This document shows, piece by piece, positions 1-7,801 of a stretch of 14,131 nucleotides of DNA. A program made the position numbers and the translations under genes. Source of the stretch: a virus (taxonomy: Duplodnaviria > Heunggongvirae > Uroviricota > Caudoviricetes); IMG/VR virus record IMGVR_UViG_3300050011_000047, positions 1 through 14,131 of that record. One strand, given 5' to 3'. The notes below the pieces were generated by a model that worked only from the letters and a program-made list of their open reading frames with translations, made no database searches and was not told the DNA's origin. The stretch's first letter is position 1. Every line of letters begins with the position of its first letter.

Positions 1-370
1 ACAGGAGGCACAGGCTCGGCGGGTTCCGCAGGCGGTACGGGTGGGACGGGAGCCGCAGGAGGCATCGGCGCGACTGGCCCCACAGGTGGTACAGGAGGCA
101 CAGGCTCGGCGGGTTCCGCAGGCGGTACGGGTGGGACGGGAGCCGCAGGAGGCATCGGCGCGACTGGCCCCACAGGTGGTACAGGAGGCACAGGCTCGGC
201 GGGTTCCGCAGGCGGTACGGGTGGGACGGGAGCCGCAGGAGGCATCGGCGCGACTGGCCCCACAGGTGGTACAGGAGGCACAGGCTCGGCGGGTTCCGCA
301 GGCGGTACGGGTGGGACGGGAGCCGCAGGAGGCATCGGCGCGACTGGCCCCACAGGTGGTACAGGAGGCA
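1..370 (+). repeat. Perfect 90-bp tandem repeat, 4 full copies (starts 1, 91, 181, 271) plus a partial copy at 361
   Basis: Identical units read directly from the sequence; each encodes 10 Gly-X-Y triplets; there are no spacers. Confidence 0.97.
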
Positions 371-1143
371 CGGGAGCAGCAGGCGCAACCGGCGCAGCAG
401 GCCCGAGCGGCCCTGCTGACGGATGGTTTTCAGCAGGAGAGACATGGACTTACGCAAGCGCGGACGGCCCCACGTTTACATTCACAGTTGCCGCAGATGT
501 AACAACGAAGTATTCCGTAGGGATGAGGCTTCGCCTGACGCAGACCACCATAAAGTATTTCATCATCACTGCCGTCTCAAGTTTCTCGGGAGGAAATACA
601 ACGATCACAATGTACGGCGGCACGGTCTACACCCTTGCTAACGCGGCCATATCCCTGAATTCGTACTCAGGGGCAAAATCTCCATTTGGTTTTCCTCTTG
701 ATCCTTCAAAGTGGACAGAGAAGTTGGCATCAAGTGCAACGGATGAGCAAACTAACTGCACCCTCAACCAGTTCTACAATTTGGGGAGCCGCACCATCTC
801 AGTACCTATTGGTTCCTGGATTCTCGGGTTTGAGTTCAATGCAGGTGTAATCTCATCTACCGGAGCAGCAGGAGATAAAGAATTGAGTGCTGTATTTGGC
901 ATCTCCACATCTTCCTCATCGTGGAGTGATGACGAACTGCGGTTGTTCGTGCGCTTCGACTCCTACATCGCCACCGTGGGAGACATTCAAATTTACACCT
1001 TCGCCAAGAGGGATAAAAATGTTGTGCTCGCTAGTAAGACAACGTACTACTTGTTGGGTGTGGATCAGATAGGCGGATCGTTCATCACCACTAACGGCAG
1101 TGATGGAACTACGGTGTTGCGTGCCGTCTGTGCGTACCTATAG
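1..1143 (+). CDS. Collagen-like (Gly-X-Y) fibre/virion protein, 5'-truncated by the window edge; C-terminal globular domain is a probable receptor-binding module
   Basis: Frame 1 is open from base 1 and reads ([30 protein letters not shown])x4, with Gly every third residue. It continues in frame through [25 protein letters not shown] into the listed 523..1143 ORF, so the ATG at 523 is not the true start. Confidence 0.85.
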
Positions 1144-3873: not shown

Positions 3874-4425
3874 ATGCGCTACCCCGGAGCGATTTGGTAT
3901 CCATCGCCTGTACGGCATCCCAACCGTCCCGCGACGCGGGGCCTAGTCATCCACTGGACGGTCGGACACAAGGCCGGTGACCTCTCGGCCCTGACGAGCG
4001 GGAAAGAGGATGTGCAGTTCTACGTCACGAAGACGGGCCAGGTCTATCAGTTGCTCGATAGTGACTCGGAGGCATGGCACGCAATGCCGACGGCCAACAC
4101 CTACTGTGTAGGCATCGAGCACGAGGGATCGGGAGAGCCGTACACTCCTGCGCAGTTCGCGGCCTCAACCAAACTCGCGGCGTGGATTTGCAGGACGTAC
4201 AAGATTCCGGTCAGGCATACCGATCCGCATACGAACTGGAAGGGCATCTACGGGCACGCCGATCTTCACGGCATCGACAACAACGATCACACTGATTCGG
4301 TGCCTACGGGTACCGGGTGGCCGAGGTACCTTGCCGGAGTCGTAGCGGCACTTCCGGTGCAGCATCGCGTCCTCCTACGCCTCAAGGCGTTGGCGGGCGG
4401 CGGACGCGCACCGAAGTTGCTCTAA
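3874..4425 (+). CDS. Endolysin, N-acetylmuramoyl-L-alanine amidase (Amidase_2-like), with no evident cell-wall-binding domain
   Basis: LVIHWT, FYVTKTGQVYQL, AWHA, VGIEHEG, IYGH and DHTD motifs match the Zn-amidase pattern. Confidence 0.9.
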   Translation: MRYPGAIWYPSPVRHPNRPATRGLVIHWTVGHKAGDLSALTSGKEDVQFYVTKTGQVYQLLDSDSEAWHAMPTANTYCVGIEHEGSGEPYTPAQFAASTKLAAWICRTYKIPVRHTDPHTNWKGIYGHADLHGIDNNDHTDSVPTGTGWPRYLAGVVAALPVQHRVLLRLKALAGGGRAPKLL

Positions 4426-4981: not shown

Positions 4982-5309
4982 TGGTGGAGCCGGGGGAGAA
5001 TCGAACTCCCCGTCTGACCACGGTCGTGCGGTAGGACTTCTAGCAGCATATTGGGGGCATGTGCCCTCCACCAAGTTGCCGTCTTTCCCGGCCTAAGTCA
5101 GCCCGTCTCTCCGGGCCGTCCTCCGCGTGGTGCCCTACGCGAATGAGGGGGAGAAGGCGGGGCGGGGGAGCAGACTCCCGAGCCACGACTTCGCCTTGGC
5201 GAACACGTTGGTGATCGCATTTGGGTTTGCCCTCCGGGCCGGTGCGGTAGTCCGCAAGCCGTCTGCATCCTTGCCGTCGTGTCCGAGCCATCGAAACCAA
5301 GTCGGCCCC
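4982..5309 (-). ncRNA. ssrA: tmRNA (328 nt), phage-encoded
   Basis: 5' GGGGCCGACTTGGTTTCGA and 3' GACGGGGAGTTCGATTCTCCCCCGGCTCCACCA; acceptor stem GGGGCCG/CGGCTCC with the G3-U alanine identity pair; encoded CCA; tag frame 5218->5135. Confidence 0.95.
5135..5218 (-). other. tmRNA tag reading frame: (A)AITNVFAKAKSWLGSLLPRPAFSPSFA-stop
   Basis: Resume context CAAAT|GCG matches the usual xAxxY|GCN pattern; open for 27 codons to TAG. Confidence 0.7.
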
Positions 5310-5645: not shown

Positions 5646-6089
5646 TTAGCGCACCGGCAGCGCGAACACGACGAGCCGGTACGTGGCCGAGAACGGCGGC
5701 GTACACGTCGAGAGCACGAGGCGTTCGTGCCCGATGTCTGCGAGCGGTGCAACATCGGACGGGCTCAAGACTTCGCTGCCGGAGACGGCGTACACAGTTG
5801 TGCGTCCACCGATCCGCAGGTAGATGCGGGCTCCGCGCACGAGCCGGTTGAGCCAACGGAAGGGGCCATGCCCGTCGAAGCCGGGCACGGGCGTCACGCG
5901 ATGACCGGCGATAGCGATGGTGCAGCCGCAACCGGGACGGCCCGAGCCTGCGTAGAAGCCGGGGCCACGCGCGAGCACCGCCTCTCCCGTCCCCTCCCGC
6001 ACCACGGTGCGGATGCCGAGTGTTGGGATTGCCAACACAGGCGCACTCGCGACGAGCGCGGGAGGGGAAGGAGGGGCGGCGTAGATCAC
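5646..6089 (-). CDS. Sortase, class E-like, 147 aa, with no N-terminal TM anchor
   Basis: LAIPTLGI..VREG....L.RGPG, IAIAGHR (His), LVLSTCTPPFSATYRLVV (Cys, Arg) give the full catalytic triad; the GTG at 6089 overlaps the upstream TGA (GTGA); the upstream in-frame extension to 6197 is a shadow of the collagen gene. Confidence 0.9.
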   Translation of the reverse strand: MIYAAPPSPPALVASAPVLAIPTLGIRTVVREGTGEAVLARGPGFYAGSGRPGCGCTIAIAGHRVTPVPGFDGHGPFRWLNRLVRGARIYLRIGGRTTVYAVSGSEVLSPSDVAPLADIGHERLVLSTCTPPFSATYRLVVFALPVR

Positions 6090-7309
6090 TTGGTGAAGGC
6101 CAACTTCTTCGGCTTCGCCGTGATGACGATGCGCTTGATGATGACCTTCGGCTTCGCAGGCTTGTGCCAAGCCGCCGCAGTGGCGTTCTTGACGCAAACC
6201 AACTGGCCGCGTGCATTGAGCGTAAGCACAGTGCCGACCGGAGCCTTGGACTGCACTCCGTTCAAGTTCGGGCAGAGGTCAGCCGAAGCGCCGTCGGCAC
6301 CGTTCTTGCCGTCCGCACCTGCCGGGCCGGTTGCGCCCGTTGCGCCCTGTGCGCCGTCCGCACCCGTGGCTCCGTTCGAGCCATTGGAGCCGGGAGCACC
6401 GTTCGCGCCATCTGCACCGGGAGCACCGGGTGCGCCGTTGCAGACTGCGCCGTCGAAGTAGAACGGCGATTCACTGTCCGAGTTCGGGTTGAACGTCCAG
6501 ACATCGACACCGCCGTAGGTGCAAACGCCCTGCCCTTCCTCGCCGGAATCGTTGACGGCAAACACGCTCGCACCGTTGGTGCCGTTCGTGCCGTTCGTGC
6601 CGTTCGTCCCGTTCGTACCGTTCGAGCCGTTGGCACCGGGTTCGCCGGGAGCACCCGGATCACCCTTGGGGCCGGTATCGCCGGTTGCGCCCTGAATGCC
6701 CTGACCGCCCGGCTGACCGTTGCAAACGAACTGCTGGTCAACACGCTCACCTGCGGCGTTGTAGACCTGAATGGCAACTCCGCCGGTCGTGGCGCAAACA
6801 TCTCCGCCTTCGCCGGGGCCGAACGTCACGGTGGTTACCGTGTCGCCGGGAGTACCATCCTTGCCGTCCTTGCCGTTGGTGCCGTTGGTGCCGTTCGAGC
6901 CCGGAGCACCGTTCGACCCATTCGAGCCGTTCGACCCATTCGTGCCGTTGGTGCCGTTCTTCGGGCACGCCTGCAACGTGAGGGTGCCCGTCTCGGTGGA
7001 CGTGTTCGTGTTGTGCGGATACGAGTTCTTTGTCTCCGTGAACGTGAACACGACCGAGTGGCTACCGATGGTGCTACCCGCGATGCCCGACTCCGTGTAC
7101 GTCGTGGTCGAGGAGCCGTCGCTCGGGTTGAGGGCAGTGATCGAGTAGCCACTGTCAGCCACGTTCGTAGCCGTCCAGACAACTTTCGATGTGCCTGTGG
7201 TGGTATCGCAAGTCTGGACGCCCGTGACCGAGTTGCTCCACGCAAACGCCGAACCTGCCCAAACCATCGCCGCAACAAACACGGCAATGGCGGAGATTGC
7301 CTTCCTCAT
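6086..7309 (-). CDS. Secreted collagen-like protein, probable sortase substrate
   Basis: Sec-type signal MRKAISAIAVFVAAMVWAGSAFA; AGGAGG Shine-Dalgarno (SD); three Gly-X-Y tracts separated by Cys-containing spacers; basic tail ending KKLAFTK. Confidence 0.9.
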   Translation of the reverse strand: MRKAISAIAVFVAAMVWAGSAFAWSNSVTGVQTCDTTTGTSKVVWTATNVADSGYSITALNPSDGSSTTTYTESGIAGSTIGSHSVVFTFTETKNSYPHNTNTSTETGTLTLQACPKNGTNGTNGSNGSNGSNGAPGSNGTNGTNGKDGKDGTPGDTVTTVTFGPGEGGDVCATTGGVAIQVYNAAGERVDQQFVCNGQPGGQGIQGATGDTGPKGDPGAPGEPGANGSNGTNGTNGTNGTNGTNGASVFAVNDSGEEGQGVCTYGGVDVWTFNPNSDSESPFYFDGAVCNGAPGAPGADGANGAPGSNGSNGATGADGAQGATGATGPAGADGKNGADGASADLCPNLNGVQSKAPVGTVLTLNARGQLVCVKNATAAAWHKPAKPKVIIKRIVITAKPKKLAFTK

Positions 7310-7454: not shown

Positions 7455-7664
7455 TCACGTGAGCGCCCGTCGATACGCTGCGCTGTAGAGCGCGGGATGG
7501 TGGATCGCGTCTAGCGCGCGCTCGCGCGGGACATCGAAGGAGTCGAGCACGATTTTGCCGCTGCTCGCCATGACGGCGAGCCGGACGGTCGTGTCCGTAA
7601 CCTCCTCGATGTCGATGTGGAAGCCGACGCCCGCATCGCGGACGAAGATCGTCTCGGCGCTCAC
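7455..7664 (-). CDS. Hypothetical 69-aa protein
   Basis: GTG at 7664 preceded by GAGGAGG and overlapping the upstream TGA; reads MSAETIFVRDAGVGFHIDIEEV...HHPALYSAAYRRALT. Confidence 0.65.
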   Translation of the reverse strand: MSAETIFVRDAGVGFHIDIEEVTDTTVRLAVMASSGKIVLDSFDVPRERALDAIHHPALYSAAYRRALT

Positions 7665-7801
7665 GCAGCCTCGACCTCCTCGTTGTCGCAGAGTTCTCCC
7701 CAACCGCAACCGCAGTCGAGAGGCTTGTTGTCCGGACTTAGCCGGATACCCACCCACGGGCAACCGCAGGGGGCGAGCGGGGTGTCTGTGTTGTTGGTCA
7801 T
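7661..7801 (-). CDS. 46-aa Cys-rich protein, first gene of the minus-strand operon (not in the ORF track)
   Basis: MTNNTDTPLAPCGCPWVGIRLSPDNKPLDCGCGWGELCDNEEVEAA; GTGA-coupled to the next gene; leaderless promoter directly upstream. Confidence 0.6.
   Translation of the reverse strand: MTNNTDTPLAPCGCPWVGIRLSPDNKPLDCGCGWGELCDNEEVEAA

Follow-up and report, generated by a model that had tools for sequence, protein, structure and literature searches.

We analysed a 14,131-nt stretch of DNA, hereafter the window, which forms the first 14.1 kb of the IMG/VR virus record IMGVR_UViG_3300050011_000047, and concentrated on a pair of minus-strand genes at 5646–7309. The upstream gene encodes a secreted collagen-like protein that ends one residue after a sortase-type motif, and the downstream gene, which overlaps it, encodes a sortase. 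The features of the pair are as follows.

6086..7309, minus strand: collagen-like secreted protein of 407 aa (Pfam Collagen, 1.1e-23), the putative sortase substrate
7241..7309, minus strand: Sec-type signal peptide, residues 1–23, as read from the sequence and kept in the homologues P0011 and P0012
6959..7240, minus strand: N-terminal all-beta domain, residues 24–117, a generic FN3/Ig-like sandwich
6284..6955, minus strand: three Gly-X-Y blocks (6839–6955, 6566–6718 and 6284–6436) of 13, 17 and 17 triplets
6188..6280, minus strand: C-terminal two-cysteine domain, residues 344–374, with columns invariant in four proteins of the phage type described below
6113..6187, minus strand: fast-evolving Lys-rich linker, residues 375–399, in which basic and hydrophobic residues alternate
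6089..6112, minus strand: terminal octapeptide P-K-K-L-A-F-T-K-COOH followed by TGA (KPAKPKVIIKRIVITAKPKK), the putative minimal sorting signal
5646..6089, minus strand: sortase of 147 aa, whose GTG start overlaps the TGA of the substrate gene (GTGA)
5676..5903, minus strand: catalytic triad codons, His63 (5901–5903), Cys129 (5703–5705) and Arg138 (5676–5678)
5859..5894, minus strand: family-specific loop TPVPGFDGHGPF, residues 66–77, with a six-residue insertion right after the catalytic His63

The collagen-like gene has a strong ribosome-binding site, AAGGAGG, 7 nt upstream. The signal peptide of its product comprises an n-region (MRK) and a 16-residue hydrophobic core, with a hydrophobic window at residues 3–21 and cleavage predicted between AFA and WS. 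The 47 Gly-X-Y triplets, whose blocks are separated by two small two-cysteine inserts, pass the PF01391 Collagen threshold in three stretches (83.2 bits versus 27.2), and are the sole source of the tail-fibre-type PHROG matches that the protein returns. An AlphaFold2 model of the full chain was poor (predicted local distance difference test, pLDDT, 42); only the predicted N-terminal sandwich was usable (pLDDT ∼70–82), and its VIA-align scores against FN3/Ig domains (Z ≤ 6.8) amount to a generic match. The C-terminal two-cysteine domain and the tail are shared by the homologues P0011, P0012, P0164, P0167 and P0168, with a signal peptide in both full-length ones, and the domain is also present in the collagen-like neighbour of a more distant sortase, P0021. 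Phage-type substrates retain the Sec signal peptide and eight cysteines; the cysteines point to folding of the fibre outside the cytoplasm, and we propose that it could assemble as a trimer. The ratio of non-synonymous to synonymous substitution (dN/dS) in the C-terminal 64 residues is 0.42–0.87 among the phage-type copies, with the last eight residues nearly invariant. Downstream of the LAFT motif there is no hydrophobic segment, and the basic stretch lies ahead of the motif (KPAKPKVIIKRIVITAKPKK). The gene thus bears out an earlier note on this DNA, which had described a coupled upstream protein with a signal peptide, an end at ...PKKLAFTK-stop, a basic stretch before the motif and no membrane anchor. 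The scissile bond is presumed to be that between Thr406 and Lys407.

The product of the downstream gene matches both the Pfam Sortase family (PF04203, 1e-21; 77.4 bits versus 26.6) and the generic model TIGR01076 (49.8 versus 39.35) above their cut-offs. Neither an alignment of 9 sortases nor one of 60 shows any change at His63, Cys129 (within LSTCTP) or Arg138, and a dN/dS of 0.17–0.36 among phage-type copies indicates purifying selection; the enzyme looks active. AlphaFold2 predicts a sortase barrel with high scores (pLDDT 96; predicted TM-score, pTM, 0.87), and in a Foldseek search this model aligned with many solved sortases, which are eight-stranded beta-barrels, at E ∼1e-11 and TM-scores of 0.76–0.82. 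They include T. fusca SrtE and S. coelicolor SrtE1 of class E and also class C sortases (TM-score ∼0.8); the best solved relatives, 5go5, 9m4u and 5cuw of class E together with class C structures, are all less than 30% identical to the window sortase. The enzyme has neither a transmembrane (TM) helix nor a signal peptide. Its sole hydrophobic window, residues 12–30, forms beta-strand 1 of the fold, and a hidden TM segment or signal is thereby ruled out.

The earlier note had discussed the enzyme by reference to class E. This is the nearest class, its model NF033747 being the top NCBIfam match, but the score of 71 bits against a cut-off of 160 leaves the window sortase below class level. The match begins at profile position 69 of 211, so that the N-terminal cytoplasmic segment and TM anchor are missing. 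The same model gives 138 bits for P0010, a canonical relative with a TM helix, and 39.7–56.8 bits for the bacterial relatives described below. For classes C, D, F and GN (NF033745, NF033746/NF058671, NF033748 and TIGR03784) all scores were 36–50 bits against cut-offs of 140–166, and the class F model gave no match to the window sortase. The three bacterial short sortases tested stay under the cut-offs of classes C, D, E, F and GN; two of them are also short of the TIGR01076 threshold, and one scores best on the class C model.

Among known systems, class E (S. coelicolor SrtE1/SrtE2 with the chaplins, T. fusca SrtE, and S. avermitilis SrtE, 5go5) is the closest in sequence and fold (5go5, 1.8e-9; 9m4u and 5cuw, TM-score ∼0.79). 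It shares with the present family an actinobacterial origin, the His-Cys-Arg triad, a Tyr in G-x-Y before the catalytic His and tolerance of Ala at P3 (L-A-x-T). Across the alignment of nine sequences, Tyr46 of the window sortase is conserved, and its counterpart in chain 5go5 is the Tyr of the class E ‘GHY’ motif. Class E enzymes have a conserved Tyr in their beta3/beta4 loop for which a role in reading Ala at P3 has been proposed (PMC5148588), and from the alignment Tyr46 is presumed to be that residue (SrtE1 Tyr229). Class E enzymes have a cytoplasmic segment and a TM anchor, whereas beta-strand 1 is preceded by a signal peptide in the bacterial relatives and by nothing in the phage forms; the window core is also shorter, at 147 aa, and carries the six-residue insertion after the catalytic His. 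Class E substrates continue after the Thr with Gly, a hydrophobic helix and a basic tail, whereas here a single residue follows.

Relatives of the pair were gathered from scans of species-representative genomes and Joint Genome Institute (JGI) metagenomes. Five further phage-type sortases were 64–79% identical to the window enzyme, all without an export signal, and each of the six (window, L002, L003, L028, L098 and L100) follows a collagen-like protein that ends K-L-A-[FY]-T-K-stop. The octapeptide is invariant apart from F/Y in the first five of these proteins; L100 has Ala-Pro for the first Pro-Lys. The distances from the substrate stop to the sortase start in the first four loci are −1, +7, +5 and +4 nt. 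They are never in frame, which argues for two proteins and not a shifted fusion: a fusion would need a +1 shift in half of the loci and a −1 shift in the other half. Reading the sortase frame upstream revealed no hydrophobic segment. In the phage genome, even the loose ending [FYL]T[KRP] occurs in only 2 of 1097 stop-to-stop open reading frames (ORFs), and a search of IMG/VR for DNA encoding PKKLA[FY]TK-stop returned the related phage contig plus one chance match, in the AT-rich phage L025. A homology search with the C-terminal 70 residues of the substrate gave nothing at E ≤ 1e-3.

A cellular family has the same arrangement. In 26 bacterial loci, a signal-peptide sortase of 150–186 aa lies 2–9 nt downstream of, or overlaps, the gene for a signal-peptide protein; the typical junction is TGA-nn-ATG, and the signal peptide of the sortase runs straight into beta-strand 1. 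These loci include metagenome-assembled genomes (MAGs) labelled Gaiellaceae, Actinomycetota and Actinobacteria, as well as soil metagenomes. Their substrates consist of a signal peptide, an NGNG stretch, a four-cysteine module and a Thr/Gly/Pro-rich stalk, and end ...ALLATATA-P-R-x-A-P-[FY]-T-K-stop, with the variants APLTK, APFTR and IPFTP. Two more distant short sortases have neighbours that end KYTK and APFTL, the latter, beside P0021, being collagen-like. The earlier note had treated the system as one belonging to a phage; as a phage invention it does not stand, since the family is at home in Gaiellaceae-like Actinomycetota, with a different, Thr/Gly-rich substrate.

The ending [FYL]-T-x-COOH was found in 34 of 34 neighbours of sortases of this kind (six phage-type, 26 bacterial and two distant), counted where the upstream DNA was readable, with P0015, P0016, P0020, P0024 and P0029 outside the count. 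Among canonical class-E-like sortases (227–306 aa, N-terminal TM helix, mostly from Solirubrobacterales), none of 19 had a tail-bearing neighbour. By the terms of the earlier note, homologues that all continue as LAFTG followed by a TM helix would have refuted its reading; instead, the homologues keep the motif at the extreme C-terminus. As judged from these sequences, the tail consensus is P-[KR]-x-[LA]-[AP]-[FY]-T-x-COOH. The residue after the presumed scissile bond (P1′) is K, L, R or P, mostly K and never G, so that ‘Lys in place of Gly’ is right for the window and too narrow for the family, in which the constant element is the preceding [FY]-T.

The tail is also specific within genomes: three MAG genomes each contain a single P-[FY]-T-K-stop, and in all three it lies beside the sortase. 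When 401 genomes of the class to which the Gaiellaceae MAG belongs were searched for A-P-[FY]-T-K-stop, 17 matches came up, 16 of them by chance (seven end TGG, and nine lie in short non-coding frames without a sortase downstream). A profile search of 1.84 billion representatives yielded 20,494 sortases, 48 of them below 1e-30, and the top of the list was dominated by 130–190-aa forms.

Several neighbouring arrangements were seen in the course of these scans. Short signal-peptide sortases similar to P0008 and P0009 (L022:3300–3873, and L071 upstream of the sortase at 972) have a neighbour with a different ending, ...LTLAFNSKQVVGARV-N-PV-x-HKV-x-K-x-VFRL-x-N-[RK]-stop, in which L-A-F-N-S lies ∼26 residues from the end with no hydrophobic helix after it; this may be a second non-canonical signal. 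In L049, L050 and L055, a sortase clade that lacks the insertion after the catalytic His, the neighbours are Ala/Pro/Lys-rich, contain KAPR(A/V)AKAPR repeats and end RRQIPFTP-stop; the closely related sortases of L067 and L068 have no such ORF upstream. The short sortase P0029 lies directly 3′ of a gene for a 379-aa protein with a Pfam CLIPPER domain (PF01345). In L004–L009, which represent one bacterial lineage, the pair lies ∼2 kb from the mraZ-rsmH-ftsL-PBP cell-division cluster, PBP denoting a penicillin-binding protein gene.

The type of tail follows the enzyme. In a tree of the sortases, the phage clade (support 100/100) groups with the bacterial APFTK clade at moderate support (81/89), and the TM sortases stand apart (95/88). 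The phage clade, the APFTK clade and the KYTK-linked sortase, all with neighbours ending [FY]-T-K, have the full insertion, in the context H-[RD]-V-T-P-V-P-G-F-x-G-H-G-P-F; in P0021, with its APFTL tail, it is one residue shorter, and canonical TM sortases and the groups with APFTR and IPFTP tails lack it. Work on SrtA has established that, in known sortases, the leaving group and the nucleophile are accommodated next to the loop that follows the catalytic His. We regard the family-specific loop as a candidate for binding the terminal residue or the incoming nucleophile, and suggest for this reason that the insertion may suit the enzyme to a leaving group of one residue whose carboxylate is free. 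As a separate observation on the same region of the enzyme, phage-type sortases have two extra cysteines, P-G-C-[GAD]-C, before the catalytic-His strand (window 5925–5933, minus strand, residues 53–55), where bacterial sortases carry P-G-Q-G-T.

The carrier of the window pair is a phage from soil; the earlier note had likewise taken it for a phage. The source record is 92,362 bp long, with 63% G+C and a 217-bp terminal repeat, and this one closed genome holds virion, lysis and integration genes (tail fibre, amidase endolysin, structural protein and recombinase). Plus-strand genes encode a tail fibre, an Amidase_2 endolysin, an HNH endonuclease and a virion structural protein of PHROG 1623. A minus-strand island, set between the lysis genes and the rightward genes that come next, comprises a gene for a ∼74-aa protein, the collagen-like gene and the sortase gene. 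Features of the phage outside the pair, and the sortase-like ORFs found in other phage records, are as follows.

3874–4425, plus strand: Amidase_2 endolysin, signal-less
7455..7763, minus strand: small conserved protein at the head of the island; start uncertain, conserved part 7458–7673, ∼74 aa in relatives
49976–50497 of the record: tyrosine recombinase, an integration gene
PQ519980.1:1174–1530 and OR846644.1:6299–6655: sortase-like ORFs in Enterococcus phage records

The tyrosine recombinase makes the phage probably temperate, a judgement about lysogeny drawn from its genes. The small protein at the head of the island is 59–61% identical to L002:3503–3727 and L003:2560–2787, which occupy the same place upstream of the collagen-like gene, and has no Pfam, PHROG or NCBIfam match. 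The gene order of the island is kept in the phage contigs L002, from a 93.8-kb uncultivated virus genome (UViG), and L003, and in the short contig L098. In these relatives a metallophosphatase gene lies directly 3′ of the sortase gene (L002:5451–6014, L003:4559–5107 and L098:1090–1953); none was found in the window phage by tblastn of the whole genome. The 93.8-kb UViG was the only related phage in IMG/VR, and no near-identical DNA was found among GenBank phages. A protein search of 50,697 GenBank phage records with the sortase gave only two matches, at 28% identity, both unannotated and in short records named ‘Enterococcus phage’.

Two further observations concern the ends of the record and the DNA beyond the sortase gene. 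A tail-fibre gene with collagen repeats spans the record ends (window 1–1143, plus strand, and genome 91513–92362), and the 217-bp repeat looks like the assembly overlap of a circular or permuted genome and not a physical end. Just downstream of the sortase gene and on the same strand, 4982–5309 gives a sub-threshold, full-length match to transfer-messenger RNA (Rfam RF00023; 29.8 bits versus a gathering score of 47, E 6.9e-10, model positions 1–374). This stretch is 78% identical to L002:6846–7172, within a 1.3-kb gene-free gap of the related phage; in the window, ARAGORN, silent at 4982–5309, and Rfam at its gathering threshold detected no RNA genes.

The reading that we favour, with moderate confidence, is that the pair forms a dedicated sortase–substrate cassette in which an anchor-less minimal signal serves for transfer to the wall or to an amine acceptor. 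It starts from the gene anatomy, the conservation of the tail, the strict co-occurrence of enzyme and tail, the intact triad under selection and the sortase fold; from there, we infer cleavage between Thr and the terminal residue, transpeptidation and the nature of the acceptor. After export by Sec, the collagen-like protein would fold beyond the membrane as a trimeric fibre with disulfide bonds. The octapeptide at its end, P-[KR]-x-[LA]-[AP]-[FY]-T-x-COOH, would stand in for LPXTG, hydrophobic helix and basic tail; Cys129 would attack the bond after Thr406, freeing the single terminal residue, here lysine, and the acyl-enzyme would be resolved by an amine acceptor. We believe this acceptor to be most likely the stem peptide of host peptidoglycan, because the substrates are built like wall-anchored proteins (signal peptide, head, stalk and signal), and the product would be a covalently attached surface fibre. 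Ahead of the tail lies a basic amphipathic segment, ALLATATA... in bacterial substrates and KVIIKRIVI... in that of the window, which may hold the C-terminus near the membrane or wall and so replace the TM helix.

The motif itself fits sortase chemistry, with L or A at P4, A or P at P3 and Thr at P1, like LAXTG and LPXTG. LPXTG-type signals resemble the present tail in their C-terminal place, in P4–P1 like L-[PA]-x-T, and in a substrate that has a Sec signal and a stalk, with a Pro/Thr/Gly-rich or collagen region ahead of the signal. In contrast to such signals, the present tail has no hydrophobic domain and ends at P1′, where K, L, R or P stands instead of G; its basic residues lie ahead of the motif, and P2, which is free in LPXTG, is fixed as Phe or Tyr. 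The LPXTG-anchored adhesins Scl1/Scl2 (SclA/SclB) of S. pyogenes follow the same overall plan of signal peptide, globular domain, collagen stalk and sortase signal. The likeness to the Scl models NF038330/NF038329 (48.7 bits versus 325 and 34 versus 400) is confined to the Gly-X-Y repeats, and the present protein differs in the two-cysteine inserts of its stalk, in its terminal signal, in having its own adjacent sortase and in its origin from a phage of an uncultured actinobacterium.

We also used complex prediction with the sortase and the last 64 residues of the substrate. The predicted complex scored 0.34 (median of three runs), compared with 0.03 for the best control, and lends weak support to an interaction. 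The runs agreed in at least 65% of contacts, and the pLDDT of the partner was at least 51. Of 80 solved complexes, 58 also attained the mark that this prediction attained, as did 2 of 110 mismatched pairs; at scores of 0.60 or below, only 7 of the 80 solved complexes and both mismatches did so. Because solved sortase–peptide complexes exist, such a pass may reflect likeness and not binding.

With regard to origin, we suggest that the cassette would be native to Gaiellaceae-like (Thermoleophilia-type) soil Actinomycetota, where both proteins have signal peptides. The probably temperate 92-kb phage would then have captured it, added the collagen-like ectodomain to the tail and lost the export signal of the enzyme. 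The phage sortase, like the signal-less endolysin, may reach the wall only when the membrane is breached at lysis, so that ligation would be timed to the burst; this is a guess. Alternatively, the sortase might act on the precursor before export.

A number of points weigh against a dedicated cassette of this kind. The phage-type sortase lacks a signal peptide or TM helix in six of six copies, and its substrate has a Sec signal; as annotated, the two lie on opposite sides of the membrane, for which the canonical mechanism does not account. A soluble substrate without membrane retention could diffuse off before it is processed. To our knowledge, the known sortases of classes A–F need Gly or Ala at P1′, and here P1′ is not Gly. 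The family is rare, the Gaiellaceae MAG being the only one of 401 sampled genomes of its class to contain the pair, and all of the family data come from MAGs and metagenomes. The complex prediction is weak, and cleavage, acyl-enzyme and acceptor are all putative.

The alternative that survives best, although we consider it unlikely, is that the enzyme polymerizes or cross-links: Thr406 would be joined to a Lys epsilon-amine in the linker of another chain, or in a phage or host surface protein, giving a covalent fibre network or pilus-like polymer in the style of class C, and not peptidoglycan anchoring. The fold match to class C equals that to class E, one bacterial member scores best on a class C model, and the Lys-rich stretch before the tail is conserved in composition in phage and bacterial substrates. 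A soluble enzyme with a soluble substrate would, moreover, suit protein ligation better than a reaction with lipid II at the membrane. Class C pilus sortases (3o0p and 4g1j, TM-score ∼0.8) are also encoded as dedicated enzymes beside their own substrates. Nevertheless, the linker lysines vary in position, no pilin-type YPKN motif and no CnaB/CnaA domains were found, and no class C lid is visible in the 147-aa enzyme; unlike a class C system, the pair has no lid, TM anchor, pilin domains or substrate pilin-motif lysine.

An improbable alternative is processing alone, in which the enzyme would act as a C-terminal peptidase that trims the last residue or hydrolyses the acyl intermediate, so that the fibre is matured and not ligated. 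Sortases do hydrolyse the acyl intermediate when no nucleophile is available (PMC9126251), and the topology problem would disappear if the phage enzyme trimmed the precursor in the cytoplasm, ahead of its export. However, it is hard to see what would be gained by taking off a single variable residue (K, L, R or P), the bacterial enzymes are, like transpeptidases, exported, and a conserved P4–P1 followed by a variable P1′ is the pattern of a leaving group and not of a functional terminus. We give slightly less credence still to the idea that the tail is not a sortase signal but a basic wall- or membrane-binding tail, or the signal of another machine, with the sortase serving LAXTG or LPXTG proteins of the host and the adjacency reflecting co-regulation. 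The tail region is strongly basic and amphipathic, like tails that bind the wall non-covalently, and the weakness of the complex prediction would agree with this. Against it stand the [FYL]-T-x-COOH ending of 34 of 34 readable neighbours, the single tail per genome beside the enzyme in three MAG genomes, the way in which tail type follows sortase clade and active-site insertion, and a motif that mirrors known sortase P4–P1 specificity. That the pair is an artefact, whether a truncated LAFTG-TM gene, a sequencing error, or a frameshifted or read-through collagen–sortase fusion, has nothing in its favour beyond the odd look of a single sequence, and is ruled out for practical purposes by a stop directly after the same motif in 34 independent loci and by junctions whose offsets vary and are never in frame.

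Sorting signals have been defined for 25 years by a motif, a hydrophobic helix and a basic tail, the helix retaining the substrate for a membrane-anchored enzyme. We found no description in the literature of a terminal signal of the present kind, including the strings APFTK, LAFTK, LAYTK and APYTK, nor of a phage sortase of this type, and the suggestion in the earlier note that the anchor-less system is undescribed is in keeping with this. We likewise know of no credible report of a sortase–substrate cassette from a phage, and the literature yielded none. The chemistry of the sortase is presumably conserved; what appears to be new is the architecture of the signal, the topology of the enzyme and the carrier. 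A bolder proposal, which we put forward tentatively, is that these enzymes constitute a new sortase class: soluble and anchor-less, reading an eight-residue C-terminal tag, releasing one free amino acid, and thereby practically irreversible and independent of the membrane, with the phage enzyme freed at lysis to stitch pre-exported fibres onto the wall or onto released particles.

A functional analogy exists in the peptidyl asparaginyl ligases butelase-1 and OaAEP1, which also work with a short C-terminal leaving group, of two residues, and without a membrane; they are plant enzymes, unrelated in fold and in catalytic machinery, and such ligases have been reviewed (PMC9126251). Labelling by sortases is limited by its reversibility, since the Gly-peptide that is set free can itself act as a competing nucleophile (PMC9126251). 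A sortase with a single-residue leaving group and a short, free C-terminal tag would be a candidate for irreversible C-terminal ligation. If our reading is correct, the family would be a natural sortase system without either anchor, so that retention at the membrane would not be a requirement of sorting, and it would form a group of sortases outside classes A–F. For the biology of the phage, it would pose the puzzle of how a cytoplasmic transpeptidase meets a secreted substrate.

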